A stretch of 64,000 nucleotides of DNA, taken from IMG/VR virus record IMGVR_UViG_3300045976_000096, positions 32,001 through 96,000 of that record, one strand, 5' to 3'. The stretch is from a virus. The notes under the pieces are model-generated. The model had not been told where the DNA came from. It saw nothing but the letters and a program-made list of their open reading frames with translations, and made no database searches. Each line of letters begins with the position of its first letter. Positions within the stretch are counted from its first letter, which is position 1. Position numbers and translations under genes: made by a program. Shown piece by piece: positions 428 through 48,911 of the stretch.

Positions 428-1270
428 ATGGCAACTAAAGAACAGATGATGGCCGAAATGATGGCGAAGATGCTGGCGAAGAAGCAGTCGATGAAGAAGT
501 CCGAAAAGACTGTCAAGCTCGAAGTCGGCGAAAACCGCGTGGTCATCCTGCCGGGCTGGCGTGAAGGCGACCCGACGTGGTATCACGACTTCGGTCAGCA
601 CTTCATCAAGGACGAGTCGGACACCATCCAGGCCGTCTACATCTGCACCAACGCCACGTTCGAGCGCGACTGCCCCGTGTGCTCGGCCCTGGCCGCAGCC
701 ACCCGCGCCGCCGCCGACGACACCGTCACCGAAACCCTGGCAAAGGCCAAAGCCAGCCGCACCGTTCTCGTCAACGCCCTGATGCTCGACTCGAAAGAGC
801 CGAACACCCCGGTCATCCTGGAACTGAAACGCGGCATCTTCGAGCAGATCCTGGACATCGTGATCGAGTACGAAGGCAAGCCGCTCGATCCGGACGCCGC
901 GATCATCCTGAAACTGTCGCGCGAAGGCAAGGGCCTGAACACGAAGTACAGCGCCATGCCGACGGCGAGAACCCTGCGCGTGCCGCCGGCCGTTCTGGGC
1001 AAGCTGCACAACCTGGACGAGTACGTCAAGCAGGAATCGGAAGAACAGGAACGCCGTGCGGTCGGCGCCGTCAACAGCGTGGCGGGCGTGCTGGCGGCAC
1101 CGGGCACCGGTCGCGACGTGCCGAAGACCCCGGCGCTGGGTGGTCCGAAGAAGAAGGATGACGACTTCGAGGACGTGCCCGACTTCGACGCGACGCCGGC
1201 AGCTTCCCCTGTCGCCGATCCGTCGCTGGACTCCGACATCGACGCGCTGCTCGGCGAACTGCCCGAGTAA
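428..1270 (+). CDS. single-stranded DNA-binding protein, T4 gp32-like
   Basis: H-F...C...CPVC zinc motif, GLNTKY motif, very acidic C-terminal tail, replication context. Confidence 0.8.
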   Translation: MATKEQMMAEMMAKMLAKKQSMKKSEKTVKLEVGENRVVILPGWREGDPTWYHDFGQHFIKDESDTIQAVYICTNATFERDCPVCSALAAATRAAADDTVTETLAKAKASRTVLVNALMLDSKEPNTPVILELKRGIFEQILDIVIEYEGKPLDPDAAIILKLSREGKGLNTKYSAMPTARTLRVPPAVLGKLHNLDEYVKQESEEQERRAVGAVNSVAGVLAAPGTGRDVPKTPALGGPKKKDDDFEDVPDFDATPAASPVADPSLDSDIDALLGELPE

Positions 1271-3307: not shown

Positions 3308-3658
3308 ATGCAGGTTCAAGTACTGGATTTCATCCCGCCGATCGACGGCGTCGACGCCGAGTTCTCGACCATCCGCCTGGGTCACACGCTGGCCAAGCGC
3401 CTGGCGCCGGGCGACACCGTGTTCCTGATGGACGGCCGCACCAAGACCGTGTTCGGCACCGCGCGCGTGATGCGCGTCGAGACCGGCACCCTCCTGCAAC
3501 AATGTCAGGACTTCGGCGCGACCAACCACCGCGAGCTGGCGAACGATGCGGACGGCGCTGCGGACAGGTTGCTGGCCTACGTTCGCAAGCTGTTCGGACC
3601 CCATATCGCGTGCGACAATAAACGCAGTTGTGTGATCTTTTTAAAACGGTTGGAGTGA
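3308..3658 (+). CDS. hypothetical protein, possibly ASCH/PUA-like
   Basis: GGAG RBS; STIRLG...PGD.V pattern. Confidence 0.5.
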   Translation: MQVQVLDFIPPIDGVDAEFSTIRLGHTLAKRLAPGDTVFLMDGRTKTVFGTARVMRVETGTLLQQCQDFGATNHRELANDADGAADRLLAYVRKLFGPHIACDNKRSCVIFLKRLE

Positions 3659-3660
3659 CC

Positions 3661-4035
3661 ATGAGCGTTGAATTTACGGACATTCTGCAGTTGCCCAAGC
3701 ATAAGGGCAAGACGGTCCAGCAGGTGTACGACACTGAGCCGAGCTACCTGCTGTGGCTGCGTGATCAAAAGCTGGCCGGTGGGCGCAGCGACTATTTCGA
3801 CGGCGAAGTCCTGCGTGCGCTGAACAAGGCGATCGACAAGGACAAACGCCTGCTCAAGAAATTCGACAAGTGGACCGAATTGTCCGACGGGCGCTTCTCG
3901 CCGATGAAGCCGAAAGCCGACGGCACCACGCCGGCGGAAAAGAAGGACGACGAAGACGTCAAGCCGACGATGCAGGAAATCGACGACGCCCAGGCGAAAG
4001 CGCGGGCTTATTCAGGATTGTGGGGGAGCTTCTAA
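3661..4035 (+). CDS. hypothetical protein with C-terminal WGSF
   Basis: N-terminal KHKGKTVQQV...PSYLLWL (exonuclease X C-terminal-like); coupled ORF. Confidence 0.6.
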   Translation: MSVEFTDILQLPKHKGKTVQQVYDTEPSYLLWLRDQKLAGGRSDYFDGEVLRALNKAIDKDKRLLKKFDKWTELSDGRFSPMKPKADGTTPAEKKDDEDVKPTMQEIDDAQAKARAYSGLWGSF

Positions 4036-9117: not shown

Positions 9118-9766
9118 CCGGCGCGATAAAATAGATGAACGCGACTTCGTGATCATGACGGGCCGGCGTGCCGGCAAGTCAATGCTCGCGAAGATGCTCA
9201 AGCCTCGACCCGAGATTCGCGGGACCGAGGCTTCGTTCGTCATCATGGACGAATGTACCGACAGCCTTGCGTTCACCAACGAGGATTTCCGCAAACTTTA
9301 CCTGACCGATCCAATGAGCAAAGACGACACCCTGACCGAAGTCCAGCAGGAGCTGGACAAGCTGTGCGAGCGCATGACCGCCTATTTCGCCGCCGCGCCC
9401 GACATCGACATCACGACGACCCTGTCCGGCCCCGGCAACCTGACCGTGAGCGTGCCCGGCAAGGGCTACCGCAAGCGCAACCACGTCGGCGGCGAGGAAT
9501 TCGTCGCCAAGAGCGCGCGCCGCGGCGCCTCCGACAAGATCATCTTCGTGTTCAAGCCCGCCTCGGCCAGCGAATACACGGAGATGGAGATGACCGAGGT
9601 TGACGCAGCCGCCCAGCTCAATGGCGGGCGCGCGCTGCTGAACGCGGCTGCCGGCGGCGACTTCTTTGCCGAACTGCGCAATATCCGCGCCATCGGGCAA
9701 AAGCAGAAGCAGGCGCTCGAAGTGGTGGCCAAGCAGGCGACCTACCCGGACTTCGGATCGTGGTAG
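9107..9766 (+). CDS. hypothetical protein with C-terminal FGSW (start uncertain)
   Basis: Long ORF with phage codon bias; alternative ATG at 9314. Confidence 0.55.
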   Translation: MASDRRDKIDERDFVIMTGRRAGKSMLAKMLKPRPEIRGTEASFVIMDECTDSLAFTNEDFRKLYLTDPMSKDDTLTEVQQELDKLCERMTAYFAAAPDIDITTTLSGPGNLTVSVPGKGYRKRNHVGGEEFVAKSARRGASDKIIFVFKPASASEYTEMEMTEVDAAAQLNGGRALLNAAAGGDFFAELRNIRAIGQKQKQALEVVAKQATYPDFGSW

Positions 9767-10059
9767 CGCCCCTGAACTTCCCGCCGTACATCCACGAACC
9801 GTGGGGTGCGGCCGAGCCGATCAAGACCGCCATCAACAACGTCTCGTCCAATGTCGCCGGCACCCTGTCGACGCTGCACGCGGCGGTCGCCAATCTGGAG
9901 ACGCACACCGGCGTCTCTACCAGCACCGTCAGCGGCGGCCCGACGCCGGAGCAGCGCATCGCCGTCCTGGAGGCGCAGGTGCAGACCCTTTCCAAACAGG
10001 TCGAGGCGCTGACCAAGCGCCTGGCCGACATTCCTCAATCCCCGACCGGGGCCTGGTAA
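9760..10059 (+). CDS. small coiled-coil protein with C-terminal DIPQSPTGAW
   Basis: Overlaps the previous stop; heptad pattern. Confidence 0.55.
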   Translation: MVAPLNFPPYIHEPWGAAEPIKTAINNVSSNVAGTLSTLHAAVANLETHTGVSTSTVSGGPTPEQRIAVLEAQVQTLSKQVEALTKRLADIPQSPTGAW

Positions 10060-10744: not shown

Positions 10745-11329
10745 GTGGCAATCAGTAAATTCGGAGACCTGTTCTCCTCGGTGTGGTCGACCAGCAAGCC
10801 TGGTGACATGAAGAATGGCGCTGGCGCACCCCACATCAACGACGCGCTGGGCGGCGCCAGCGGCAAGCCCGCCGCCCCGGCGCCGAGAATCACCAGCAGC
10901 CTCGACGACCCGCTGTATGACCCGTATGGCAACATCATCGGTGGCCACCGCCGCCATGCCGCGCGCGAGGAATTGAAGCGCTCCCTGACCGCCGGCGGTG
11001 GCGAAGGCGTCACCGTTAGCGAATCTAGCGTGCGTTTCAAGGGCGGCGAAATCACCGCGGCAGGCAACATGCGCATCGGCCCATCCGAGGAAGAACTCAA
11101 CAAGCGCTTCGCGGAATTCGTTGAAAAGTACAAGAAGGACAGCGAAGCGGCCAGGGCCGCCAGGGAGGAAATCGCAGCCGACATGGACAAGCTGCCGCCC
11201 GCCCGGTCTTCCCTGAACCTGGACGCGCTGCGCGCCAGCCTGGCTGCCAAAGAACACGACCTCAAGAAAAAGGCCGAGGAGTCCAAGGTCAACCGCGACC
11301 GCCCGCAGAACGTGGACGATTCCTGGTAA
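10745..11329 (+). CDS. hypothetical protein with C-terminal DRPQNVDDSW
   Basis: GGAG RBS and GTG start after the promoter. Confidence 0.6.
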   Translation: MAISKFGDLFSSVWSTSKPGDMKNGAGAPHINDALGGASGKPAAPAPRITSSLDDPLYDPYGNIIGGHRRHAAREELKRSLTAGGGEGVTVSESSVRFKGGEITAAGNMRIGPSEEELNKRFAEFVEKYKKDSEAARAAREEIAADMDKLPPARSSLNLDALRASLAAKEHDLKKKAEESKVNRDRPQNVDDSW

Positions 11330-11408: not shown

Positions 11409-13685
11409 ATGCAAGTAATCAAGCGCGACGGTTCGCGTGAGCCGCGTGACGTATCGAAGATCCACAAGCAGACCGGCTGGGCCTGTGAAGGCCTGAACGT
11501 GTCGCAGTCCGAGCTGGAGCTTGCGGCCGAACTGCAGCTGTTCGATGGCATCAAGACCAGCCAGATCCACGACGCCTTGATCAATGGCGCGGCCAGCCTG
11601 ATTTCGCTCGAGTGCCAGGACGCGACCTTCGCGGCGGCCCGCCTCGTGCTGCTCAAGGTCTACAAGGAAGCCTGGAACGACATCGCCTACCCGCACCTGA
11701 AAACCTACATCGAGGCCGGCATCGGCGCCGAGAAGCTGCACCCGTCGCTGGGTCGCCTGTTCGACCTCGACAAGCTGAACGCGGCCATCGTCCCGACCCG
11801 CGATCGCCAGTTCAACTTCATCGGCATCCAGACCCTCGCCGACCGCTACCTGATCCGCAACAAGGCGCGCCGCGTGATCGAACTGCCGCAGCACATGTGG
11901 ATGCGCGTGGCGATGGGCCTGGCGCTGCGCGAAACCGAACCGACGGATCGCGCCATCGAGTTCTACAACGTGCTGTCCACGTTCGACTTCATGTCGTCGA
12001 CGCCGACCCTGTTCAACGCCGGCACGCTGCACAGCCAGCTGGCCAGCTGCTTCCTGAACACGGTGAAGGACCAGATTTCGGCCGGCGAGGACGACCCCAA
12101 ATACGCCTCGATCTACGGCACCATCGAGGAGTGCGCCAACCTGTCCAAGTACGCCGGCGGCATCGGCACCGACTGGACCCCGGTGCGCGCCGAGGGCGAC
12201 TGGATTCGCGGCACCGACGGCATTTCGTCGGGCGTGGTGCCTTACCTGAAGGTCTACAACGACACCGCCGTGGCCGTGAACCAGGGCGGCAAGCGCCAGG
12301 GTTCGTTCGCGCCCTACCTGGAGCTGTGGCACCCGGACGCGTACGACTTCATGGACCTCAAGAAGGAATCGGGCGACGAGCGCCGCCGCGCGCACGACGT
12401 CTATCCGGCGTGGTGGGCGTCGGACCTGTTCTTCAAGCGTGTGGAAGCGCGCGGCACCTGGAGCTTCTTCTCGCCCAAGGACCACCCGGAACTGCACGAA
12501 CTGTTCGGCGACGCCTTCGAGGCGCGCTACGAGCAGCTGGAAGCCGAGGGCAAGTTCGTGCGTCAGGTGCCGGCCATCGACATGTGGAAACGCATGCTGG
12601 CCTCGCTGTTCGAGACCGGTCACCCGTGGATCACGTTCAAGGACGAAATCAACCGCCGCAGCCCGCAGCAGCACGTCGGCGTGGTGCACTCGTCCAACCT
12701 CTGCACCGAAATCACGCTGAACACGTCCGACGACGAAACCGCCGTCTGCAACATCGGCAGCGTCAACGCGGCGAACCACATCTACAAGGGCAAGCTGGAC
12801 GTCGAGCGCCTGCGTCAGACCGTCACCACCGCGATGCGCATGCTGGACAACGTGATCGACATCAACTTCTATCCGTCGCCGCGCGCCAAGAAGTCGAACC
12901 TGCGCCACCGCCCGGTCGGCCTGGGCATCATGGGCTACACCGAATACCTCGTCCAGCAGGGCATCGATTGGGAAAGCCAGGCGCACCTGGACGCGGCCGA
13001 CGAACTGATGGAGTACTTCTCGTACTTCGCCATCGAGGCGTCGATGAACCTGGCACGCGAGCGCGGCGCCTACTCTACCTTCCCTGGCTCGCTGTGGTCG
13101 CAAGGCATCCTGCCGATGGATACCGGCGCCAAGGGTGTGCGCGCCGAACTGGTGACGCGCGCCACGGTCCTGCCGTGGGATGCGCTGCGCCAGAAGGTCG
13201 TCACCTACGGCATGCGCAACAGCAACACCATGGCGATCGCCCCGACCGCGACCATCAGCAACATCGTCGGCACCACCCCGACCATCGAGCCGATCTTCCA
13301 GCGCGAGTACACGAAAAAGAACCAGTCCGGCTCGTTCCTGGTGACGGACCCGTGCCTGCGCTACGGCCGCCCGGACCTGTGCAAGGAGGCGTTTGAAATC
13401 GACGCCGACTGGATGATCGACGCCGGTGCCGTGCGCCAGTTCTGGCTCGACCAGGCCCAGTCGCTCAACATCTTCGTGCCGTTCGGCATCAAGGGTGCGC
13501 GCCTGTCGCAGATTTACGTACGCGCGTGGAAGCGCAAGCTGAAAACCACCTACTACCTGCGCGGCCAGAGCGCAAAGAAGGAAGAAGCGCCGGTGATCAA
13601 GGAAGCGCCGGTGGTGGTGGCCGAGGAAGACATGACCAACAAACTTTGCTCTCTTGATAATCCTGAGTGCGAATCTTGCCAATGA
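11409..13685 (+). CDS. nrdA: ribonucleotide reductase class Ia alpha subunit
   Basis: ATP cone (VIKRDG), TPTLFNAG, SNLCTEI, APTATIS, KTTYY, C-terminal CESCQ. Confidence 0.97.
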   Translation: MQVIKRDGSREPRDVSKIHKQTGWACEGLNVSQSELELAAELQLFDGIKTSQIHDALINGAASLISLECQDATFAAARLVLLKVYKEAWNDIAYPHLKTYIEAGIGAEKLHPSLGRLFDLDKLNAAIVPTRDRQFNFIGIQTLADRYLIRNKARRVIELPQHMWMRVAMGLALRETEPTDRAIEFYNVLSTFDFMSSTPTLFNAGTLHSQLASCFLNTVKDQISAGEDDPKYASIYGTIEECANLSKYAGGIGTDWTPVRAEGDWIRGTDGISSGVVPYLKVYNDTAVAVNQGGKRQGSFAPYLELWHPDAYDFMDLKKESGDERRRAHDVYPAWWASDLFFKRVEARGTWSFFSPKDHPELHELFGDAFEARYEQLEAEGKFVRQVPAIDMWKRMLASLFETGHPWITFKDEINRRSPQQHVGVVHSSNLCTEITLNTSDDETAVCNIGSVNAANHIYKGKLDVERLRQTVTTAMRMLDNVIDINFYPSPRAKKSNLRHRPVGLGIMGYTEYLVQQGIDWESQAHLDAADELMEYFSYFAIEASMNLARERGAYSTFPGSLWSQGILPMDTGAKGVRAELVTRATVLPWDALRQKVVTYGMRNSNTMAIAPTATISNIVGTTPTIEPIFQREYTKKNQSGSFLVTDPCLRYGRPDLCKEAFEIDADWMIDAGAVRQFWLDQAQSLNIFVPFGIKGARLSQIYVRAWKRKLKTTYYLRGQSAKKEEAPVIKEAPVVVAEEDMTNKLCSLDNPECESCQ

Positions 13686-13733: not shown

Positions 13734-14744
13734 ATGAACGAAACCCTTATCCAGAAGATCAACAACCGCCGCCTCATCGAAGGTCCACAGGATCGCGCGA
13801 TGTGCATTTCGCCGCTCAAGCATCCGTGGGCAATGGAGGCGTTCAAGCGCTTTCGTCGCAACGATTGGTATCCAGAATCCATCGCGATGGGCGACGACGT
13901 CGCCTGCTACCGCAACCGCCTGGACGATGGCGAGCGCCGCATGTACGACAAGGCGCTGGCGTTCGTGTCGAACCTGGACGGCTTCCAGTTTGAGAACCTG
14001 ACCACCAATATCGGCGCCCACATCACCAGCCCGGAAGTGTCGATGGCGATTTCGCGCCAGGCTTACGAGGAAGCCAACCACGTCACCGCCTACCAGCTGA
14101 TGACCGAGGCGATTTCCGCGCGCCCGCTCGACATCTACGGCATGTACGAGAGCGACCCGATCCTGGCCGCCAAGAACAAGCTGATTCTGGACCAGAACGA
14201 CGAGCTGCGCGGCGGTTTCACGCCGGAGAAGTTCGCGCTGGCCATCGTCGGCAACGTCAACCTGGAAGGCATCTATTTCTACAGCGGCTTCTTCGGCTTC
14301 TATCTGCTGGCGCGCGCCGGCAAGATGCTCAAGAGCGCCGACCAGATCAAGTACATCAACCGCGACGAGGAAGCGCACCTTGGCTTCTTCATCGACATGT
14401 ACCACTGCCTGAAAGCCGAGCGCCCGGAAATCTTCACGCCGGCATTCTACGAGAAAGCGAAGAACATGATGCGCGCGGCGGTCGAACTGGAGAAAGCATG
14501 GGGTAAGCACATCATCAGCGGGGGCGTCCTGGGCGCGACCGACACCATCGTTGACCAGCGCATCGAGTGGCTCGCAAATACCCGCGCCGCGCGCCTGGGC
14601 TGGGAACCGCTGTATCCGGGCGTCGTCAACCCGACGCCGTGGGTCGAGAAGATTTCCGCCATCAACGGGGTGGAGACCAACTTCTTCGAGGGCAAGCCGA
14701 CCGACTACCAGGCGGGCGGAGCACTTGATTTCGACGACCTCTGA
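13734..14744 (+). CDS. nrdB: ribonucleotide reductase beta subunit
   Basis: EEANH..AY, LEGIYFYSGF, RDEEAH, ETNFFE. Confidence 0.96.
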   Translation: MNETLIQKINNRRLIEGPQDRAMCISPLKHPWAMEAFKRFRRNDWYPESIAMGDDVACYRNRLDDGERRMYDKALAFVSNLDGFQFENLTTNIGAHITSPEVSMAISRQAYEEANHVTAYQLMTEAISARPLDIYGMYESDPILAAKNKLILDQNDELRGGFTPEKFALAIVGNVNLEGIYFYSGFFGFYLLARAGKMLKSADQIKYINRDEEAHLGFFIDMYHCLKAERPEIFTPAFYEKAKNMMRAAVELEKAWGKHIISGGVLGATDTIVDQRIEWLANTRAARLGWEPLYPGVVNPTPWVEKISAINGVETNFFEGKPTDYQAGGALDFDDL

Positions 14745-16858: not shown

Positions 16859-17512
16859 ATGGACTCGAACACCTATATCGCCAACGCCCTGCGCACCGAG
16901 AGCGTGCCGACGCAGCTGGACATCAATGAAGTGGCGCTGCACGCCATTCTCGAGCTGGCGATCGCCGCCGGCATCCTGGTCGACCAGGCCAAGCGCCGTC
17001 TGTACTACAACAGCGCCGCCAAGACCGTCCTGCTGGACAAGGACAAGATGCTGGGCGCGCTGGCCACGCTGCACGGCCTGTCAGGCTTCCTGGGTCACGC
17101 GCTGCAAAACGACGAGATGGACTTCGACACGCGCCTGGAGCCGCAAGCGCTGACCGCCATGACCGAGGGCATGAAGGAGGGCGGCAACTTCCAGCTGGCC
17201 AACCTGGACGTGCGCCTGACCCACGCGGCGCTCGGCTGCTTTACCGAATCGGGCGAACTGCTGGAAGCGATCAAGGCCCAGTACGAGACCGGCATCATCG
17301 ACCGCGTCAACTTCGGCGAGGAAATCGGCGGTGACATCTCCTGGTATCAAGCCATCGGCATCGACGCGGCCGGTCTTGACCTCGACGACCAGCGTGCCAA
17401 AAACATCGAGAAACTGCGCATCCGGTTCCCGGACAAGTTCAGCTCCGAGAACGCCATCACGCGCGACTTGACTGCGGAACGCGCAGCACTGGAAGGCAAA
17501 GCAAGCACTTAA
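16859..17512 (+). CDS. MazG-like NTP pyrophosphohydrolase
   Basis: HAALG..TESGELLEAIK, EEIGGDISWY, NIEKL..RFPDKF. Confidence 0.85.
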   Translation: MDSNTYIANALRTESVPTQLDINEVALHAILELAIAAGILVDQAKRRLYYNSAAKTVLLDKDKMLGALATLHGLSGFLGHALQNDEMDFDTRLEPQALTAMTEGMKEGGNFQLANLDVRLTHAALGCFTESGELLEAIKAQYETGIIDRVNFGEEIGGDISWYQAIGIDAAGLDLDDQRAKNIEKLRIRFPDKFSSENAITRDLTAERAALEGKAST

Positions 17513-17530
17513 CATTGAAGAAAGATAATT

Positions 17531-17830
17531 ATGGCAAAGAAGAAATTCCCAATCACGATGTTCCAGGTCACGCCCAGCATGAACATCAAGGAAGTCGTCC
17601 TGACCGGCAAGGCTATGCGCTCCGGCTGGGGTGGCACCTACGAAATGACCGGCTATGCGAAGGATGAAAAGGGACGCGAACATTATGTCGCCTCCCTGTT
17701 CGACAGCCGTGCCGCCGCGCTGGAAGCTGCCGAGCGTGCAGTCGTCGATCAGGAAGCGCGCCACAAGAAGGCGGGCGAGAACATCGCCAAGCGGCGCGCC
17801 AACCTGGAAAAGGCGAAAGGAGCCGCATAG
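17531..17830 (+). CDS. hypothetical protein
   Basis: ORF within the operon. Confidence 0.55.
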   Translation: MAKKKFPITMFQVTPSMNIKEVVLTGKAMRSGWGGTYEMTGYAKDEKGREHYVASLFDSRAAALEAAERAVVDQEARHKKAGENIAKRRANLEKAKGAA

Positions 17831-20974: not shown

Positions 20975-21586
20975 ATGCCGACCGGATACACGCACGCGCT
21001 GACCGAGCGCGACCTGAGCTTCCAGGAATACGCACTGACCTGCGCGCGCGCCTTTGGCGCCTTCGTTCATATGCGCGACGAGCCGCTCGGCGCGCCGCTG
21101 CGCCCAGACACCGTCACGTCATACTACGACGACAAGCTGACCGAAGCCAAAGCCGACCTGGACAAGTTCCAGCACATGTCGCTGGAAGATGCGCGCGTCC
21201 TGTACAACGCCGAACGTGCCGAACGGCGCACGCGTGCCGAGCAGCGCATCGAGGAAATGAAGGTGATCGAGGCGCGCTATCGCGCGCTCAAGGAAAAGAT
21301 CGACGCCTGGGCGCCGCCGACACCGGAACACCAGAGCCTCAAGCGCTTCATGCTGGAGCAGTTGATGGTATCGGCCAGCGATTACGACTCGTCCTATTAC
21401 GCGGAAGACGCCGCCCTGGCGCCGACCGTGACCGACGCCGAAGCGAGCGAATGGGTGCAGGAAAAGATCCGGGCCGCCATCAAGCAGATTGGCTACTGCA
21501 GCGACCAGCGTCGCAAGGAGCAGGAGCGCGTCGACCAGCGCAACGAATGGGCGCGCCAACTGCAGGAGTCGTTGAAAGATGGATAA
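20975..21586 (+). CDS. hypothetical phage protein (MPTGYT...CARAFGA)
   Basis: GGAGG RBS; coiled coil. Confidence 0.65.
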   Translation: MPTGYTHALTERDLSFQEYALTCARAFGAFVHMRDEPLGAPLRPDTVTSYYDDKLTEAKADLDKFQHMSLEDARVLYNAERAERRTRAEQRIEEMKVIEARYRALKEKIDAWAPPTPEHQSLKRFMLEQLMVSASDYDSSYYAEDAALAPTVTDAEASEWVQEKIRAAIKQIGYCSDQRRKEQERVDQRNEWARQLQESLKDG

Positions 21587-22130
21587 AAAGGTTGAGCTGA
21601 AGGATTTCGTCGGCAAGGAGTTCGACCTGACGGCGGTCTCCACCGCCGAGGTCGTCGCCAACGATAAATATGGCGACTTCGCAAACGCCAGCACCATCAC
21701 CTTCACGCTCGATGGCGTGACGTATCAGGCGGTGGAAGACCCGAGCGACGGCTACCGGTCCTCGCTTCGGGAAATCTTCATCTGCGACACGGAACCGGCA
21801 AACCGGTTTCCAGCCCAGCGCGTGAAGGCGACGTGGAAGGAGCCGGGTTCTTACGACAACGACACGGTCGAATTCCGTTCGGTCGCCTCGGACCTGATCG
21901 TGATGGAAGTCGGCACCGACCATGTGAATGACTATTATCCATGCTTCGTCAGCAATTTCGAGCCGAAGAACATGGACATCAACCGCACGGACGACATCCG
22001 GCAGAAGATCGCGATGGAGGAAGCCAAGCGACTCGAGGACGAACGGCATGCCCAAGATGTGCGGGACAAGCTGAACGCCAAAGCAAAGCTGGACGCGCAG
22101 CGCGACGACGCAGGCTGGGGCACCTTTTGA
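21579..22130 (+). CDS. hypothetical protein with C-terminal WGTF
   Basis: EDPSDGYRS and VGTD..DYYP motifs. Confidence 0.65.
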   Translation: MDKKVELKDFVGKEFDLTAVSTAEVVANDKYGDFANASTITFTLDGVTYQAVEDPSDGYRSSLREIFICDTEPANRFPAQRVKATWKEPGSYDNDTVEFRSVASDLIVMEVGTDHVNDYYPCFVSNFEPKNMDINRTDDIRQKIAMEEAKRLEDERHAQDVRDKLNAKAKLDAQRDDAGWGTF

Positions 22131-22210: not shown

Positions 22211-22744
22211 ATGACGCGAACCATCCCGCAACTCGGCCATATCGTGCGCGACGCCACGACCGGCTTTACCGGCACTGCCACCCAGTACATCGAAATGCTG
22301 TCCGGCACCGTGCAGCTGGCGGTGCAGCCGATGCTGCCCGAAGGCTCCACCCACACCGGCGACGCGCTGGCGATTCCGACCGCGCTCTCCATCGACCTGC
22401 CGCAGCTGGACTACGTCAGCGCCGGCATCGCCAGCCGCGTGATCGCGCCGGCGCCGCAGACCATCAGGCTGGGCGAGGAAGTCGAGGACATCGTGACGGG
22501 CCTGCGCGGCATCACCGTGCAGCGCTCGACCTTCATCAACGGCTGCGTCTACTACAACGTGCAGCCGAAGCAGACCGCCAAGCAGAAGGAAGAAGGCACG
22601 TTCAGCGATACCGGCTTCGTCGCGGCGCAGCGCCTGGAAGTCGTCGGCGACGGCGTGGCGGCCAAGATGGCGCCGGCAACCGCGGCCCCGGCCGCCAAGC
22701 GCCCCGGCGGCCCGACCACCCGCGCACAGCGTCCGGGCTGCTGA
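22211..22744 (+). CDS. hypothetical protein with a duplicated SH3-like repeat
   Basis: Two LG..V.D..TG..G repeats. Confidence 0.65.
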   Translation: MTRTIPQLGHIVRDATTGFTGTATQYIEMLSGTVQLAVQPMLPEGSTHTGDALAIPTALSIDLPQLDYVSAGIASRVIAPAPQTIRLGEEVEDIVTGLRGITVQRSTFINGCVYYNVQPKQTAKQKEEGTFSDTGFVAAQRLEVVGDGVAAKMAPATAAPAAKRPGGPTTRAQRPGC

Positions 22745-23094
22745 TGAAGACCCTGCACATTCCGCCGCTCGGCACCGAACTGACCCTGGCGGCCGACTGG
22801 ACCTTCACCCTGTACGACGAGCACCGCAACAGCGCCTTGTTCGCCGGCTTGAAGCTCAAGTTTCCGGTCGACGCCAGGGGTCATCGCCAGTGCTGGGGCG
22901 CCAACATGCTCAGCGTGCCGGCGACGCTCCCGGCCGGCACCGTGCTGACCGTGCGCCGCTACTACATCCGGCTGGGCCAGGGCGCGTTCGACAGCGTCAC
23001 CTTCTCGGCCCGGATCGGCAAGAAGTCGCACCGCTTCTGGGTCAAGCTGGCGGACGCGAACCGCATCCAGCTGGCCGACGAGGAGGCGGCATGA
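22744..23094 (+). CDS. hypothetical protein
   Basis: TGATG overlap. Confidence 0.6.
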   Translation: MKTLHIPPLGTELTLAADWTFTLYDEHRNSALFAGLKLKFPVDARGHRQCWGANMLSVPATLPAGTVLTVRRYYIRLGQGAFDSVTFSARIGKKSHRFWVKLADANRIQLADEEAA

Positions 23095-23345
23095 TCCGCG
23101 GTGCCTGGGAAGGCTTCAAGGCCGGTGTGCGCTGGTGCGTCACCACCTGGCCGTTCGGCTACCTGTGCGACTTCGAGTGGGGCCATCAGGGCCGCATCCG
23201 GGTCACGAAGGACTTGTGGGTGATCGTCGGCGACAAGGGCGGCGGCACCGACGCGCTGCCGATCACCTTCTGCTCGCCGCAGCTGATCGCCCGCGTCGAG
23301 GAAGAACTGACGGGCCGCTGGTACGCGCCAACGACCAAGAACTGA
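23091..23345 (+). CDS. hypothetical protein
   Basis: ATGA overlap, GGAGG RBS. Confidence 0.5.
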   Translation: MIRGAWEGFKAGVRWCVTTWPFGYLCDFEWGHQGRIRVTKDLWVIVGDKGGGTDALPITFCSPQLIARVEEELTGRWYAPTTKN

Positions 23346-23431
23346 ATCCGCGCACGCTCCAGATATGGGCGTGCATAATACCACCATGACAACAACGTCA
23401 TGACTGACTTACTTAACCACATGGAGAAAAT

Positions 23432-24580
23432 ATGTCCGAAACCATTCTGCAATCGAAGGCGGTGTTCTTCCGCGACGGCAACGACTTCACGATCGGCGAC
23501 CGCGAGAACCTGCAAATGTCCGACACGCTGCCGGTCGGCACCTACCGCCTGGATGCGGACATGCAGCGCGGCCTGTTCCTGACCAAGATCGAGAACATGA
23601 CGACGCCGGCCAAGCTGTACGGTCACACCCGCGAGCAGGCCGAGCGCATCCTGGCCACGTTCAAGGATCGCCCGTACACCACCGGCGCCCTGCTGTCGGG
23701 CACCGCCGGCTCGGGCAAGACCATGCTGTCCATGCTGATTTCGCAGATGGGCCTGCAGCAGGACTACATCACCATCGTGGTCAACCAGCGCCTGGTCGGC
23801 GAACAAGTGAATGCCTTCCTGACCCAGATCAAGCAGCCGGCGATCATCCTGTTCGACGAGTTCGAGAAGATTTTCGACGCCGAAAGCCAGAACAAACTGC
23901 TGACGCTGCTGGACGGCTCGTTCAAGTCCAAGAAGCTGTACATCCTGACCGTGAACGACACGACCAAGGTCAACCGCTACATGACCAACCGGCCCGGTCG
24001 CCTGTTCTACGCGCTGGAATTCCGCGGTCTGGACAAGGACTTCATCAAGGAGTACTGCGACGACAAGCTGATCAACAAGGCCAACACGCTCGGCGTGATC
24101 ATGGCGTCGCAATTCTTCTGGGAATTCTCCTTCGACATGCTGCAGGCGCTCGTCGAGGAAATGAACCGCTACAACGAGAACGCCACCCAGGCCATGAAGA
24201 TGCTGAACATGCGCCCGCTGAACTCGTCCTCGGGCACGTACGAAGTCCACCTGTACCACAATGGCAAGGAACTGAATGTGCGCAAGGGCCACGACACGAC
24301 CATTGACGGCACGCCGATGGCCAAAGCGGAGCAGGAATACCAGCTGGACCTGTACCCGCCTGTCTACCGCGACAAGGACGGCAGCGCCGACTACTCCGGC
24401 AAGCAGGTCAAGGAAAACGACCTCAAGGAGCACATGTCCATCGTGATCGACAACGACAAGATGATCAAATACGACATGGACAAGGACGTGTTCATCTACA
24501 ACACCGAGCACGACGGCTATCAGGTCCACTTCAAGCGCGTGAAGGCCCGCTCCACCTACTACAACTACGACGCCCTCTAA
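23432..24580 (+). CDS. AAA+ ATPase
   Basis: GTAGSGKT, ILFDEFEK, LLDG, NRPGR arginine finger. Confidence 0.9.
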   Translation: MSETILQSKAVFFRDGNDFTIGDRENLQMSDTLPVGTYRLDADMQRGLFLTKIENMTTPAKLYGHTREQAERILATFKDRPYTTGALLSGTAGSGKTMLSMLISQMGLQQDYITIVVNQRLVGEQVNAFLTQIKQPAIILFDEFEKIFDAESQNKLLTLLDGSFKSKKLYILTVNDTTKVNRYMTNRPGRLFYALEFRGLDKDFIKEYCDDKLINKANTLGVIMASQFFWEFSFDMLQALVEEMNRYNENATQAMKMLNMRPLNSSSGTYEVHLYHNGKELNVRKGHDTTIDGTPMAKAEQEYQLDLYPPVYRDKDGSADYSGKQVKENDLKEHMSIVIDNDKMIKYDMDKDVFIYNTEHDGYQVHFKRVKARSTYYNYDAL

Positions 24581-24636
24581 CAACCCGCAAGGGCCGGCCC
24601 ACGCCGGCCCACCCTCAACCTCAACTAGGAACCACG

Positions 24637-24951
24637 ATGTCCGACAATACCGTCACCGAAAAAGCCGAGACCTACAACCCGAATCACCTGCTGGACGTCC
24701 TGCTGGCCAAGATGCAGCTGAAAAACGACGCCGCGCTGTCGCGCATGCTGGAAGTGGCGCCGCCGGTGATCAGCAAGATTCGCCACAACAAGCTGCCAGT
24801 CGGCGCCAGCCTGCTGCTGCGCATGCACGAAGTCACCGGCATTTCCGTGCGCGACCTGCGCGACCTGATGGGCGACCGCCGCCAGAAGTACCGCCTGTCC
24901 GACGCGCAGGGCAAGCCGAAGACCACCGAATCCACCACCAACCAGGAGTAA
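24637..24951 (+). CDS. XRE-like HTH DNA-binding protein of a host-like family
   Basis: LKNDAALSRMLEVAPPVISKIRH helix-turn-helix. Confidence 0.75.
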   Translation: MSDNTVTEKAETYNPNHLLDVLLAKMQLKNDAALSRMLEVAPPVISKIRHNKLPVGASLLLRMHEVTGISVRDLRDLMGDRRQKYRLSDAQGKPKTTESTTNQE

Positions 24952-24954
24952 TCC

Positions 24955-25362
24955 ATGAGCAAAGTCATCATGTACAAGGCGAACGACGGTTCGCTGCACG
25001 AAACCCAGAAGGCGTGCGACGCCAAGAACATCGAACTGCGCACCGCGCCGCTGGTCGAGGAATTCGTCAACAGCCTGACCGCCGGCTCTGTCGGCGTAAC
25101 CGCCGACAGCGGTCATGTCTACATCGACCTTGCCAACCTGCCGGACTTCCTGGTCGCGCATGCCGATGTTCTGCGCGCGCTGCTGAACCGCGCCGTGCAG
25201 CCGGCGGGTCGCCCGCGCAAGCCGCGTGATCCGAACACGCCGAAGGCGCAGCGCAAACCGCGCGCCAAGAAGACCGATGCGCCGCCGGCCCCGGTCGATA
25301 CGCCCGCACCCGCCGGCGGCATCGACGACGTCCTCAAGGATCTGGGCGGCGATGCGGCCTAG
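24955..25362 (+). CDS. hypothetical protein with a basic Pro-rich tail
   Basis: AGGAG RBS. Confidence 0.6.
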   Translation: MSKVIMYKANDGSLHETQKACDAKNIELRTAPLVEEFVNSLTAGSVGVTADSGHVYIDLANLPDFLVAHADVLRALLNRAVQPAGRPRKPRDPNTPKAQRKPRAKKTDAPPAPVDTPAPAGGIDDVLKDLGGDAA

Positions 25363-25598
25363 TGACGGCGGCAAGGGCGACGACCGTCGTCCCGAGGACA
25401 ATGAGCGCTATCGGCAGAACCACGACCGGGTCGACTGGTCGAAGAAGGTGCCGCCAGCGCCACCCAAGCCCCAGGCGTGCTCCCGCTGGCCATTCGATGT
25501 CCGCAGGATCGACGAATAGCCGGTCCCGCATCCTGACATAGCTTGGTATCATGTGCGTCAGTCAGCAATGACCGACGCACTTTTCATTTGAGGACAAC

Positions 25599-25886
25599 AT
25601 GGAAGACAAAAGTAAATCACCAATTAAATCCGGGTGGCGCGGCGACCTGAATGGCTATGTTGAAAATTGCGACAATACGCATGTTGCGGTGTCGGAGATT
25701 ACGCTGAAACTGGATGGCGGCACCGCCTGGGCATTGTGCAATCTGCTGACCGATAGCCAGGTCGAAAACCACCCAATGCTGGAAAAGCACCAGCGTGAAA
25801 AGATGTCCACTCTTGGCGCCGCGCTGGGTCGCTTGATCGACCACGGCGCCGCAAACAACGGCAAACGCGAGGTTATCAAACCATGA
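25599..25886 (+). CDS. hypothetical protein
   Basis: GAGGA RBS after a promoter/operator. Confidence 0.55.
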   Translation: MEDKSKSPIKSGWRGDLNGYVENCDNTHVAVSEITLKLDGGTAWALCNLLTDSQVENHPMLEKHQREKMSTLGAALGRLIDHGAANNGKREVIKP

Positions 25887-30020: not shown

Positions 30021-30467
30021 ATGGCAACAGTCTTATACCTGGACCACGACGGCAACCGGATCAGCCTTGAGCAGTACAAGGCGCATCAGGCCGACCCGAC
30101 CTACACGCAGGTACACGCCTACGACAACGGTCGTGTGCGCGCCGTCGTGACCTGGATCGGCCGCATCGTCGACCCCGGCTCGACCTTCCCGGACTACTAC
30201 AAGCTGTTCAAGGTGGAAGTCTGGAACTACACCGAGGGCGGCGAGCTGGCGAAAGATCCTGGCTATCCGAAATTCTTCCCGACCAGGGACAAGGCGGTCG
30301 AGGAATACAACTTCTTCGTCGCGCGCTGGAGCGAATCCGAGCTGGATGACGAGGGGCAGCTGATCGAGGCGGGCAACACCCTGACACCTCCGCCACCACC
30401 CAACCCGGACGCGCCAAGCTCGGCGCCGCCGGCCGACGACGACATTGCAGGAGTAGGAGCATGGTAA
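30021..30467 (+). CDS. hypothetical protein with C-terminal GVGAW
   Basis: Follows an operator site; Pro/acidic linker before the tail. Confidence 0.6.
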   Translation: MATVLYLDHDGNRISLEQYKAHQADPTYTQVHAYDNGRVRAVVTWIGRIVDPGSTFPDYYKLFKVEVWNYTEGGELAKDPGYPKFFPTRDKAVEEYNFFVARWSESELDDEGQLIEAGNTLTPPPPPNPDAPSSAPPADDDIAGVGAW

Positions 30468-37116: not shown

Positions 37117-37497
37117 ATGCCCATCGAGGCGATCGAGGTCGGCGAGGACATCGTCGGCTGCGGTTACTGCGGCGGGCAGCTGCTGCTGATCGAAATGATG
37201 CCGGACGGCCACCACGAAATCTGCAACGACTGCGGACAGCACTACCATGTGACGGACGAAGGCGAGAGTGCCGAGGACATCACAGCGGCGTTGGCCGCCG
37301 ACATCGAAATCGTGGACGACGCCACCGGCGAGGTGGTCGGCACCACCGCGCCCGGCATGACCCACCCGTCCGAGCTGGACCGCCTGCTGCAGGAGCTGGG
37401 CGGCGAGGTGCCGATGGCCAGCGCCGCGGACCTGAACCACCTGTTCGGCATCAAGGACAAGCCCTGCCCGTATGGCGACGAGTTTGGCTCATTCTGA
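37117..37497 (+). CDS. zinc-ribbon protein with C-terminal FGSF
   Basis: CGYC...CNDC; acidic. Confidence 0.6.
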   Translation: MPIEAIEVGEDIVGCGYCGGQLLLIEMMPDGHHEICNDCGQHYHVTDEGESAEDITAALAADIEIVDDATGEVVGTTAPGMTHPSELDRLLQELGGEVPMASAADLNHLFGIKDKPCPYGDEFGSF

Positions 37498-40697: not shown

Positions 40698-41003
40698 GTG
40701 AACGCACCGGCCCCAAGTCCACGCCCGCCGCTACATTTCATCGTGTGGCGCGTGACCTACAGCAGCGGCAGGACCACCGTCTCGGCGATCGACAAGAACC
40801 AGTTCGAGGCGCACATGGAGGAAAGCCCCGACTACCTCGACGGCTCGGCCTGTGTGAAAGCAATCAGCATCGCCGAGGCGGAAGACCTCGCGCGTGATCC
40901 GAACCTGTGGGAACCGATCCCGGCCCACGTAATCGAACAGGCACAAGAGCAACACCGGCAAGCAAAACTCGCGGCCAAGGCCCATTACCCGGCCGCATGG
41001 TAA
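40698..41003 (+). CDS. hypothetical protein with C-terminal YPAAW
   Basis: AGGAG RBS, GTG start. Confidence 0.5.
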   Translation: MNAPAPSPRPPLHFIVWRVTYSSGRTTVSAIDKNQFEAHMEESPDYLDGSACVKAISIAEAEDLARDPNLWEPIPAHVIEQAQEQHRQAKLAAKAHYPAAW

Positions 41004-42451: not shown

Positions 42452-42796
42452 ATGCACCATGTACAGGCCACCATCACCCATTACAGCAATGCCCAGGCGC
42501 GCAACCAAGCTGTCGGCTTATCGGCCTTGCGCGCGCTTGCGCACGACCCGGCCTGCAAATTCTACGCGCACGACGGGAACGACTACCTGATCGTCGAGAC
42601 CGAGCTTGCGGGCGCGCCTCTGTACACCTTGATCGTGCTGACCAACCTGATCGACATCGGCGCGCACAACGGGATGCAGAAAGTCGAGACCGGCCTGGGC
42701 GACGTCATCGCGCTGTTCAGCACAGGCATCTACCACGAAGCGCTTGCTGAGGCGCTGCAGATCATGAAAGACGATGCAGGCCTGCACGACGAATAA
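42452..42796 (+). CDS. hypothetical protein (cassette 2)
   Basis: Own promoter at 42386. Confidence 0.6.
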   Translation: MHHVQATITHYSNAQARNQAVGLSALRALAHDPACKFYAHDGNDYLIVETELAGAPLYTLIVLTNLIDIGAHNGMQKVETGLGDVIALFSTGIYHEALAEALQIMKDDAGLHDE

Positions 42797-42995
42797 AGTA
42801 CAAGGCGGTTGTGAGGCCCAGTGCTGACCTGGGCCTCGAAACGCTGACCTAAAATTGCCTAGGCGACAATGGGTCCGCACGCCAACGCTGACCCAATGCT
42901 GACCGGCGTGCTGAAGGAAGGCTGACCTGGGCCACGCACACGCCTCACCTGGCTTGCGACAATGGGTCTTCACCAACCACACAGCAGAGGTTTTC

Positions 42996-43223
42996 ATGTC
43001 CAAGTTCTACAACTTCCGTCCCGAAACCATCAACGGCGTGACCATCCCGGCCGGCACCGCCTTACGCGACCTTGGCGACGGCGCCATGCCCCAGATGCTC
43101 CGCTTTGAATTGCCGACCAGCCTGCACCACTGCGGCATGCGCCACATCGACCTGTATCCACATCAGGTCGGTGACAGCGCCTTGTATGACGAGTTCGCGG
43201 CAGCGATGCGCGACCGGCCGTAA
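42996..43223 (+). CDS. hypothetical protein (cassette 3)
   Basis: Own promoter at 42931; terminator at about 43232-43256. Confidence 0.6.
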   Translation: MSKFYNFRPETINGVTIPAGTALRDLGDGAMPQMLRFELPTSLHHCGMRHIDLYPHQVGDSALYDEFAAAMRDRP

Positions 43224-43490
43224 CAAGCCACAGGCGCCCACCAGGCGCCTTTTGTATTGACCGGGCCACGCCAAGGCTTTCCTAGGCCGTTACGAGGCCG
43301 TACGCCGGCCACCAGGCGCAAGCCAGGCCACCAGGCTTGCCGAGGCCACAGCCAGGCCATAGGCCGTGCGGCGGGCGCGGGATGGACACGGGTATGGATG
43401 ATGTGACCGGGCCAGCCACCCGCCGCAGCTGCGTCGTCATACTGTGGTCTCTGCTGCGATGTGCAGCGCAACCCACCCTAGAAAGAGACC

Positions 43491-46253: not shown

Positions 46254-46473
46254 CACATACGCAACAGTAGCACGCACCGCTTGACACGGTGCGTGCGATA
46301 TGCGATGTCTTAGAAAAATTTTCAACCCGAGGAGGCCCTGCCTTCCTCGACTTCCGGTCTCCGAACACCCTTCCTTACAGAATCCTGGGCGGCCGCAAAA
46401 GCCAATCCTTATACATCCAAGATCCAAACATCCACGATCCAGGATTCCACATTTCCCCACTTATCCCCGCAAT

Positions 46474-48521
46474 TCACCAGTTATCCACAATCCCCTTGGG
46501 CCGATCCTTCGACGCCAGGCGCGAGCCATCGAAACGCCCGGCCGGCGCTGCCGCGCCTCGCCGGGGTACGTCCTGCGCGCGTGGAATGATTGCCGCCTGA
46601 ATGAACAGAGGCTGGACCTCCCATTCTGCTTTCGACTCGAATGACCGGTTGCCGCTTGGGACCAGCGCCAGGTAATTTTCCCACGACAGGTCGCGATCCT
46701 TCTGCAGGGCCAGGCACTTGCCGACCAGCTCCTTGATGATGCGCTTTTGCTCTAACGGCCAGACGCCATCCCACCTATGGGCAGGCATGTCGCCGTTCTC
46801 CTGCTCGCCCAGCTGACGCCGAAGGTACAGGTAGTCCTCGTAGTTCGGGAAGGACAGGATTTTCGCCAGGTCTCTCACCAGATCACCTCCACGACGGTTT
46901 GCGGCCTGTCCGAGCCGGCGGCGCCTTGCGTTCTCGGGGTGCGCCGCACTTCCTCGCGCAGCTCCTCCATCATGTCCATCCGTGCTTTCAGGGGCATGGC
47001 GCGCCAGACGGCCTCTGAAATCGGCTCGTACTTGAGCGCCAGCGACAGCTCCACGTAGCGCTGGTAGGTGTTCACCATACGACGTCCACCGGGGTTTGCG
47101 GTTGATCGCCCTTCGGTTGGGCGGTGGCGCGCGCACGGTCGCGCATGACGCGCTGCTGGTGCTGTAGAACGTTGATCGTGATCTTGCGCATGATGGGCTT
47201 CATGTCGGTCCAGGCGTTGGCATCGATGCAGACTTCGTTGTCGAAGTGCCCGGCCAGCCAGGTGCGCATGTAGTCGTCGTAGGAGATGTTCACCAGTGGT
47301 CTCCGCCAAAACGTTCCAGTTCCTTGTTGCGTCGGTCGACGGCAGCCTGCATCTGGGCCACCATGCTCTCCTGCGCCTTCTGATCACAGCCATTCCAGAC
47401 GTGCTCTGCAATAAGGCCGAAATCGTCGTCGAACCCGGCTTCCACGCGCAGTCGGCGGTAGCGCTGGTACAGGCTCATGCGTCACCCCGCTGCCAGGCGA
47501 TGAAGTCCTCGGTGCCGTCGGCAAAGCCGCGCTCCCAGGCCTCGACCAGCACGGGTGTAGTGTACGGACAGGCCGGCACTTCCGTGACCAGTTCGTAGCG
47601 CCCGGTGCGCCAGCCGGCATCGAGACCGTCGGCATAAGCGTCGGCGTCAGCGGTCCACTTCACCATACCACCTCCACCGTGGTCTTCGGCGTGTCGCCCT
47701 TGCCGGTAAGCCGGTCAATCTCGTCCTGCGACGCCTCGCGCCACTCGCCGGCGCGCACGCTGGTGTCGATCGTCACGGTGGTATAGGTGATGTGCGGCAC
47801 GGCACGCCCATCCCGGAACATCAGTCGCCCGGTATGGGTATCGTGACCCGGCTCGAAGTCGATGCAGATGGCGCGCAAGGTGTCGCGCCAGGTGCCGTGC
47901 GGACCCTGCACGAAGTAGCGTTTCATCACGTTCTTGCGCTGGCCACTGTCGTCGGCAGGCCTGCCGGCGCCGGCCACGCCGAGCCAGTCGATATTCGTCA
48001 CCATGCGTCCACCCCGTCGGTCTTGGGTTTGTCGCCTCTTGGTGTGCCGGGGTCGACCTGGGCCTGCTTGGCCAGCGCCACGATGACGTTGCGGCGTTCC
48101 TCCTCGGGAACCAGATCGTTCCAGATCTCGTACGTGGCGGGCCTGTCCGCGCGCTTGGCCAGCCGGCACAGGCGCAGGTAGTTGTCGTAGCTGGTGTCTA
48201 CCATGCTCCGCCCTCCACTTCGGTTTGCGGCACGTCGGGCAGACGCACGCGCGCGCCGGCCGCCATCTTCAGCTGGTACTCGCTCGGCTCGAAGTAGGCG
48301 TTTTCGTTGTTAGGCTCCTGCAGCACCTCGATCATGGTGCCGGATTCGACGTGGCTCATCACGTCCTTGAAGCTCCACGGGCAGTGTACGGCGACGCTGC
48401 CATCGTGCTTGATGCCGCGCCGCGTCGTGATCGCGCCTTCTCCTTCGCCGAAGTCGAACTCGATGTGGTGAATGCGGTCGTTGATCGGCTTGGCGCCTGG
48501 CAGCATGAACACGCGCTTCAT
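46474..48521 (-). CDS. array of eight coupled small ORFs (48198-48521, 47998-48204, 47660-48004, 47475-47666, 47290-47478, 47072-47293, 46875-47078, 46474-46878); seven end in Trp
   Basis: Stop/start overlaps throughout; shared YxxY...W domain in five and shared C-terminal tail. Confidence 0.7.
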
Positions 48522-48799
48522 GGCGTCACCAGCGCCTCGACCTGGGCCAGCGCCTCGGGCGGCAGCGTGCGCAGCTTGGCGGCAAGCTCGCGCGCGCGGG
48601 TGCGGGCATCCAGCTTGTGCTGGCGCCGGGCCGCGAAGATGTGGTCGACATTGTCCAGTCCGCCGATGATGTCGAGCATGACCTCGATCGCCTCGCCCTG
48701 CGTCAGCTTGTGGGTCTTGGCCAGCTGGTTCAGATGCTCGCGCGCTTCGGCGCTCAGGTCGATGGTGTAGCGCGGGCGCGCCGGGTTGGTGGTGCCCAT
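48518..48799 (-). CDS. ribbon-helix-helix-like regulator
   Basis: RYTIDLSAEAREHLNQLAKTHKLTQGEAIE; degenerate operator just upstream. Confidence 0.6.
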   Translation of the reverse strand: MGTTNPARPRYTIDLSAEAREHLNQLAKTHKLTQGEAIEVMLDIIGGLDNVDHIFAARRQHKLDARTRARELAAKLRTLPPEALAQVEALVTP

Positions 48800-48911
48800 G
48801 TTGTTTTCTCCCTATAAGGTTCAGTGACAACTGATTATAACGCACGCGCAAACTTATCACGCAAAAAAAGCGCCCCGAAGGGCGCTTGAAAGGCACTACA
48901 TGGGAAAGGAG

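Follow-up and report, generated by a model that had tools for sequence, protein, structure and literature searches.

A putative C-terminal aromatic docking motif shared by an operon of small overlapping genes and other proteins in a clade of phages

The C-terminal tail of E. coli SSB (SSB-Ct, ..DDDIPF) and the acidic, F-ended tails of T7 gp2.5 and gp4 are exposed, carried on a linker and dependent on a free carboxylate, and they organise replication and repair proteins. Here we describe an operon of small genes whose products carry tails that resemble these in being exposed peptides with an aromatic last residue (W in the operon, W or F in the wider clade) behind a linker that is disordered in AlphaFold2 (AF2) models. 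The operon is located on the minus strand (46474-48799) of a 64,000-nucleotide window, which comprises bases 32001-96000 of the complete 112,422-bp virus record IMGVR_UViG_3300045976_000096 (GC content 62%; the phage of this record is referred to as G000, and coordinates are those of the window unless marked otherwise). It consists of nine genes overlapping head to tail, i.e., a gene resembling ribbon-helix-helix (RHH) regulators (g1) and eight small genes (g2 to g9). Seven of the eight proteins downstream of g1 terminate in W (P about 2e-12, as W represents about 1.1-1.6% of residues). Our best reading, which we hold with modest confidence, is that these termini represent a proteome-wide C-terminal aromatic docking motif and that the operon represents a fast-turnover library of small tagged proteins.

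An earlier note on this DNA had described an operon of overlapping small open reading frames (ORFs), seven of them W-ended, with a stop codon overlapping the next start at each junction and several of these overlaps reading ATGGTGA or ATGGTAG; gene models and a reading of all eight junctions agree with this description. The junctions are ATGA for g1/g2 and g5/g6, ATGGTAG for g2/g3, ATGGTGA for g3/g4, g4/g5 and g7/g8, and CTGGTGA, with a GTG start, for g6/g7 and g8/g9. The tails encoded ahead of them take the form D-x-P-[QK]-T-x-V-[DE]-x-x-W or F-G-G-D-H-W.

Five of the small genes form a family, designated B, with the signature [ST]-Y-x-x-Y-x-x-L-R ... V-W-x-G-C ... Q-x-x-M (alignment A1), i.e., g3 (47998-48204; 68 residues, tail ..DKPKTDGVDAW), g6 (47290-47478; 62 residues, tail ..RFGGDHW), which serves as the family prototype, g7 (47072-47293; 73 residues, GTG start, tail ..DQPQTPVDVVW), g8 (46875-47078; 67 residues, tail ..DRPQTVVEVIW) and g9 (46474-46878; 134 residues, GTG start), the last gene of the operon. 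To avoid circularity, a profile hidden Markov model (HMM) was built from 37 homologues from outside the window, with the last 8 residues trimmed. When run against the whole phage proteome, this HMM recovered exactly g6, g8, g9, g3 and g7 (E = 4e-20, 1.3e-11, 1.2e-7, 4.5e-6 and 2e-3, respectively), with the next protein at 0.47; for g7, the E value was 1e-4 if the tail was retained. The relatedness of the five ORFs with a YxxY module, as proposed from the letters alone, thus holds without the tail. Similarly, the repeat of this module that had been noticed in the last ORF ("SWENY") fits alignment A1 as a partial tandem copy, such that g9 consists of a family-B module, a partial second module, a long linker and the tail ..DRPKGIVDNW. 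Homologues with multiple family-B modules were also found elsewhere (P0015, P0017, P0031 and L024:11005-11634). A profile search of 1.84 billion representative proteins yielded 58 family-B matches at E<=1e-3; family B corresponds to neither a Pfam nor a PHROG family.

A second family, designated A, includes g2 (48198-48521; 107 residues, in which a linker and the tail ..PDVPQTEVEGGAW follow the domain) and, in its C-terminal 88 residues, g4 (47660-48004; 114 residues), in which a 26-residue N-terminal extension precedes the domain and the tail is ..DTPKTTVEVVW (alignment A2; the homologue P0005 matches the family-A profile at E = 2e-22). Family-A domains start with M-x-[KR]-R-Y-F and contain G-x-W-x-E-[IV]. 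The only member of the operon downstream of g1 that does not carry a W tail is g5 (47475-47666; 63 residues, ending ..GDA), in which the CPY..W..G pattern of ribosome modulation factor (RMF) is visible by eye; its match to PF04957 was below the cut-off and covered residues 32-54 only (E = 9.4e-5; 22.8 bits against a cut-off of 27.9), and g5 also matched phrog_26347 (E = 1.3e-3). With the exception of this weak RMF match, searches of g2 to g9 against Pfam and PHROGs did not identify any family.

Structure prediction, which had been suggested as a check, was performed for g2 and g6 and yielded folded domains with a disordered linker. Based on shallow alignments (9 and 11 sequences), AF2 predicted a three-helix fold for family B (pLDDT 87.5, g6) and a small beta/alpha domain for family A (pLDDT 68.7, g2), with the last 19 residues of g2 (89-107) disordered (pLDDT <50). 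In a profile-profile comparison of A1 and A2, only the last 13 columns, i.e., the tail, could be aligned. By these profiles, families A and B are unrelated and have only the flexible linker and the C-terminal tail in common. Of the proposal that the operon encodes variable N-terminal domains in front of a constant tail, the constant tail is upheld; the N-terminal domains do not vary freely, as they represent families A and B plus one RMF-like gene. No significant fold neighbour was found for either family (Foldseek-PDB and VIA-wide comparisons, in which the highest Z scores, 5.2 in the case of B and 4.3 in that of A, were within noise). HMG-box, Red-beta C-terminal domain and WGR were considered as fold neighbours and were all weak matches, hhalign did not support family A as a divergent WGR domain, and the ESM Atlas yielded no usable match for g6. 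Among the external matches, P0060 (607 residues) contains about ten 'W-[DE]-x-L-[ST]-x-E-[EQ]-Q' repeats (Pfam DUF7167, DUF3106), which match the central W..Q part of family B; this protein may represent a distant link between the family-B module and the DUF7167/DUF3106 repeats.

The tail extends well beyond the operon. We determined the last residues of all called genes in seven genomes, i.e., G000, G001, G002 and G005 (IMG/VR relatives, GC content near 60%), G007, G004 (GC content 41%) and Stenotrophomonas phage ANB28; the relatives compared are phages of about 110 kb. Overall, 70 of 951 genes were W-ended as compared to 2.6% of non-coding ORFs (P = 6e-13; Fisher's exact test), with a share of 5.9% to 8.8% per genome. 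In G000, W is the last residue of at least 14 proteins, and a further 3 have the ending [WF]-G-[ST]-F. The tail, described in the earlier note as the constant part of the operon, is hence constant without being operon-specific, since it occurs clade-wide and on about 17 proteins of this phage. Sequence comparison across these genomes identifies it as a clade-wide feature borne by about a tenth of the proteome.

Many of the bearers in G000 are located within the DNA replication and repair region. On the plus strand of the window, they include proteins ending in ..LWGSF (3628-4035; weak ExoX-like_C Pfam match below the cut-off), in ..YPDFGSW (9026-9766; beside Rad50/Mre11), in ..DIPQSPTGAW (9760-10059; a coiled-coil protein), in ..RDRPQNVDDSW (10745-11329; the tail class of the operon), in ..AGWGTF (21579-22130), in ..DDDIAGVGAW (30021-30467; with a proline-rich linker), in ..YGDEFGSF (37117-37497) and in ..AHYPAAW (40698-41003). 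A WGR-like protein encoded between primase and ligase (G000 17269-17781; PF05406 at 21.7 bits, cut-off 22.0, E = 2.2e-4) ends in ..ERWGSW and is followed by a small gene that is also tailed, two further tailed genes precede ribonucleotide reductase (RNR), and the others include several proteins of unknown function. In ANB28, two proteins with a BRCT domain and a dCMP deaminase, which all exceed the Pfam cut-offs, are among the bearers. Ten tail-bearers of RHEph10, G007 and G009 showed no match to PHROGs.

The terminal residue also differs between lineages in a concerted manner. G009 and Rhizobium phage RHEph10 showed no W termini and carry five to six N-P-x-F-G-[RA]-F tails. BLAST clustering placed these F-G-x-F tails on orthologues of the WGR-like protein and of the Rad50 neighbour, so that WGSW or FGSW is replaced by FGRF; for the Rad50 neighbour, the orthologues of seven genomes switch to ..NPNFGRF. 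In alignments of both proteins the domains are conserved, the linkers are variable and the last four residues follow the pattern Ar-G-x-Ar (Ar, aromatic). The Rad50-neighbour orthologue of G009 (L091:4376-4870) carries the tail twice in tandem (..NPIFGAF-LIPNFGAF). Individual genomes thus use different dialects, i.e., Y..W in ANB28, W..W in G007, F..F in G009 and RHEph10, and mixtures in G000, G001, G002 and G005. Two comparison phages, Pseudomonas phage nickie and the Klebsiella phage-plasmid ST13-OXA48phi12.3, share core replication and virion genes with these phages; the motif is missing from both, and no homologues of the tail-bearing proteins were detected in them.

Family-B members from outside the phage show the same behaviour at their C-termini. 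W is the last residue of 44 of 53 such members, and the endings W-G-x-F and W-x-W-G occur in 3 and 2, respectively; typical endings are H-G-E-V-W, Y-G-D-A-W or W-G-x-W, with glycine dominant at position -4. In two fusion proteins with a family-A followed by a family-B domain (P0033 and P0061), a single tail is present, at the very end.

We also compared array content across relatives, as had been proposed in the earlier note, and found fast turnover. Orthologues detectable by BLAST were present for g1, g2 and g6 only. Even the closest relative (L038; helicase 80% identical) contains only g2 and g6 orthologues, L006 contains five family-A paralogues instead, L072 contains two family-A genes and one family-B gene, and in L024 the family-B genes comprise one to three modules each and have a tail of their own, ..Q-T-H-G-[SA]-A-W. 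The orthologues of g2 were P0001, P0002 and L038:10091-10402, while those of g6 were found in L038, L033, L007, L072 and L071, and those of g1, which is retained ahead of the arrays, in G001, G002, G004, G005, L024, L033 and L072 and, by position, also in ANB28 and Xanthomonas phage JGB6. In the latter two phages, the helicase (45% identical) and the RHH-like gene are followed by a syntenic array whose members end in P-E-N-Y-G-x-W. Given these differences in content, this locus is a hotspot where genes are duplicated, lost and diversified while the tail stays constant. No DNA-level match to the operon region was found among 50,697 phage records, word-based homologue searches recovered only 2-9 relatives, and a search for related loci with P0036 as query found none. 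Downstream of the tailed array, two relatives encode a conserved protein of about 125-134 residues with a V-T-G-G-R...G-A-D motif (L006:12444-12815 and L072:6374-6778), which is absent from the window.

As the V-E-V tail codons contain GTGGAGGTG, which also serves as Shine-Dalgarno site for the gene that follows, and as the W codon overlaps the next start, we tested whether the terminal W and the residues preceding it could be by-products of translational coupling, with tail codons that encode a Shine-Dalgarno sequence (GGAGG) and an overlapping start ([A/G]TGG or TG-GTG-A) and a peptide without a role. Indeed, most operon junctions read [A/C]TGGTGA or ATGGTAG with GTGGAGGTG located 5-7 nt before the next start, and many W-ended genes elsewhere overlap the next start at [A/G]TGG. 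However, W is not forced by a GTGA overlap, for which any last codon of the form NNG suffices, while the F-ended lineages cannot owe their last residue to a start overlap because TTY codons form none. In addition, W tails persist where there is nothing to couple: the orthologue group of the gene at 10745-11329 (G000 42745-43329) ends in ..D-[RK]-P-[QK]-[TN]-x-x-D-x-W in three genomes with no ORF start near the stop, the gene at 40698-41003 is likewise uncoupled and W-ended, as are ANB28 a9 and two genes of JGB6 (8500-8700 and 11968-12255), and some members of the ANB28 and JGB6 arrays are followed by gaps of 170-300 nt. Across these two arrays, one Y-G-x-W peptide is encoded with three junction types and with synonymous codon variation, and a tail duplicated in tandem inside a protein is likewise not expected from coupling. 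A coupling by-product is therefore very improbable. A related proposal, that the junctions are short conserved linkers which promote recombination and shuffle gene cassettes, with peptide similarity being secondary, would be in line with the quick array turnover between relatives, and lambdoid phages are known to have conserved sequences at the boundaries of their mosaic modules; we nevertheless consider it hardly credible, as the junctions are only about 65-75% identical over about 25 nt, differ at synonymous sites, and encode tails that are also present on single conserved genes far from the arrays. Both proposals are largely excluded, and the junction and codon comparisons argue that the tail is selected at the protein level and is not an artefact of coupling.

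Under the docking reading, the operon would be a regulator-led, translationally coupled array of small non-structural proteins made from two compact domains, with each domain (family A or B) followed by a flexible linker and a short W-ended tail. The motif would have the general form aromatic-Gly-x(1-2)-aromatic-COOH, with D-x-P-[QKA]-[TS]-x(2-5)-[DE]-x-W-COOH as a longer variant, and a single common partner would have a pocket for its last aromatic side chain together with the free carboxylate. Many different proteins, including a diversifying library of small modules, would be recruited in this way to one machine, probably the DNA replication and recombination apparatus of the phage. A docking motif with a co-evolving receptor is suggested by an exposed C-terminal peptide with an invariant last aromatic residue and a glycine allowing a tight turn, as well as by its presence on unrelated folds, the genome dialects and the tandem tail duplication; replication and recombination are suggested as the destination by the WGR-like, BRCT, Rad50-neighbour and weak ExoX-C-like bearers along with their map positions. 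More tentatively, and with clearly less confidence than for docking as such, we hypothesize that Ar-G-x-Ar-COOH and its D-x-P-x-T...W variant could constitute a C-terminal "address code" that co-evolves with one pocket (W in the Xanthomonadales type and F in the Rhizobium type) and lets the evolvable A/B library plug into the replication and repair machine.

Two other functions of the tail at the protein level were considered. Non-polar C-terminal tags are a known route to ClpXP, ClpAP, FtsH and Tsp, and the tail, exposed on its disordered linker, could accordingly be a degradation or timing tag, the aromatic end of which would be read by a protease or unfoldase of host or phage for scheduled removal of early and middle proteins. 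The presence of a classical AAA+ ATPase gene directly upstream of the tailed array in ANB28 would fit such a role, although this ATPase is absent from G000. A degradation tag appears unlikely to us, as a co-evolving pocket accounts more readily for the lineage-wide switch from W to F and for the tandem tail, a related ending is present on enzymes such as dCMP deaminase, and the motif is, to our knowledge, unlike the C-degrons of ClpX, ClpA or Lon. Alternatively, the tail could be an address label to a place, i.e., for capsid loading and co-injection or for a phage-made compartment or condensate. In encapsulin cargo-loading peptides and PTS1, too, a short C-terminal peptide comes after a domain and a disordered linker, and small diversifying proteins of the early region are typical cargo for counter-defence. 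We judge this to be rather improbable, though, since no tail was seen on recognisable virion proteins (a tail-tip J-like protein ending in ..IGIW looks unrelated to the motif), no compartment genes were recognised, and the WGR-like, BRCT and Rad50-neighbour bearers point to DNA transactions inside the cell.

Several observations weigh against docking to a single hub. No docking partner was found among the hub candidates examined, so we infer docking, along with the partner's identity and the part that families A and B play in the cell, from the tails and their bearers. Tail-less phages also contain the MoxR/VWA pair, the helicase and the replisome genes, neither a clamp (PF02768) nor an SSB domain was found in G000 with Pfam, and the AAA+ ATPase of ANB28, rejected as a hub, has no homologue in G000. 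The main tail of the operon (..V-E-V-x-W) is unlike the Ar-G-x-Ar form, so the two forms could serve different partners, and conservation of V-E-V may act partly at the RNA level, since GTGGAGGTG doubles as a Shine-Dalgarno site. Gene counts in the census are also approximate, as they were obtained with our own simple codon-usage caller, which undercounts small overlapping genes.

With regard to the hub candidates themselves, the ATPase of ANB28 (L002:8517-9962) is a classical-clade AAA+ protein of 481 residues encoded between a cell-wall hydrolase and the W-tailed array, and the CobT-like VWA protein and MoxR/CbbQ-type AAA+ ATPase (L093:10465-13779; G000 22465-25779) belong to the core gene set throughout the clade, tail-less phages included. 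The MoxR/VWA pair, helicase, DnaE, gp32-like SSB, RecA and Mre11/Rad50 were each rejected as the hub because they also occur in nickie and/or the Klebsiella phage-plasmid. A helix-turn-helix protein (G000 21384-21926), the sole candidate obtained from phyletic profiles, was rejected because it is missing in ANB28. A further observation concerns the subunit-docking tail of RNR beta, the last residues of which have changed between relatives; the RNR small subunit ends in ..GGALVW in the low-GC relative G004 (G004 108362-109369; L070), as compared to ..LDFDDL in G000 (window 13734-14744).

The first gene of the operon, g1 (48518-48799; 93 residues), encodes a putative regulator that matches PHROG 3203 (E = 1.6e-6; function unknown). 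No RHH family was found for g1 in Pfam at E<=1, and no match to PDB sequences was found at E<=10. Its nearest named ESM Atlas clusters are RHH_5, RHH_9 and RHH_1 (CopG/RHH; cosine 0.90-0.91, TM 0.45-0.50) and its structural neighbours include RHH_1/CopG (TM 0.42-0.50), both of which we take as leads only; g1 looks RHH-like by its language-model and fold neighbours but not in Pfam. Upstream of g1, a perfect TATAAT (48834-48839, minus strand), read from the sequence and lacking a good -35 box, represents a candidate -10 box of the operon promoter; a consensus scan revealed no full sigma-70 promoter in this region. Just before the operon, an intrinsic terminator (48868-48887, minus strand; 8-bp GC-rich stem followed by a T run) closes the upstream unit of helicase and membrane protein genes. 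No substantial gene is located downstream of g9, where there is just one 22-codon ORF. Immediately past the g9 stop, where a gap separates the converging minus- and plus-strand operons, five GGAT words with a spacing of 7-8 nt occur at 46400-46470 (..cctGGATcgtGGATgtttGGATcttGGATgtataaGGATtgg); this run may represent a protein-binding array.

Short linear motifs by which numerous proteins connect to a single hub play a central part in cell biology and have hardly been charted in phages, and most small early genes of phages have no known function. No description of a C-terminal tryptophan motif or of these tail strings in phages was found in the literature searched. If the tail were a docking tag, one sequence rule would join about 10% of the otherwise unannotated genes of the clade into one functional network, and cultured relatives (Stenotrophomonas phage ANB28, Xanthomonas phage JGB6 and Rhizobium phage RHEph10) would provide a handle on the hub. 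The switch from W to F would then be a natural example of receptor-motif co-evolution, and reuse of a constant connector would explain how small effector domains are quickly invented and discarded. A phage-encoded RMF-like protein such as g5, if true, would be of interest in its own right.

Compared to SSB-Ct and the T7 tails, the tail described here is similar in that it is short, exposed and aromatic-ended and in that its bearers cluster in the replication and repair region. It differs in that it has no acidic run (usually one D/E at -3, or none, as in WGSW and YGGW) and in that Gly at -3 or -4 and a second aromatic residue are typical. Moreover, SSB-Ct and the T7 tails involve one tailed hub and many partners with pockets, whereas many proteins are tailed here and the gp32-like SSB of G000 itself (window 428-1270), which ends in ..LGELPE, does not carry the motif. 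The tandem "accessory" arrays of small early genes known from large phages (anti-defence or host takeover) are likewise composed of short, overlapping, fast-changing genes without database annotations, located behind a small regulator and beside replication genes; for these arrays, however, no C-terminal motif in common with the core replication and repair proteins of their own phage is known.

PTS1 (-SKL), encapsulin cargo-loading peptides and McdB are alike in that a very short tag is placed behind a disordered linker on unrelated cargo. McdB is reported to bind carboxysomes by means of an invariant terminal tryptophan (PMC11321042). These tags differ in that they target a compartment or shell, neither of which is known in the siphophage-like genomes studied here, and a receptor was not found. 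Clamp-binding peptides (bacterial QL[SD]LF, the PIP box of archaea and eukaryotes, and the C-termini of T4 gp43, gp33 and gp55 on gp45), which are short motifs on many unrelated proteins, often C-terminal, that bind one ring-shaped hub, follow the same logic as proposed here; unlike these peptides, the tails contain no Q and no L-x-L (Q-L-[SD]-L-F or Q-x-x-L-x-x-F occurred in none of the tails listed), and no clamp gene was identified in G000 by PF02768. Despite this similar logic, the tail, as judged by its residues, fits none of the clamp-binding, PIP-box, SSB-Ct, T7, PTS1 or encapsulin sequences. The direction of the proposed interaction, with many tailed proteins and one presumed receptor, corresponds to the clamp-binding or address-peptide type rather than to the SSB-Ct type, and an address code, if true, would be an undescribed viral counterpart of PIP-box or PTS1 logic.

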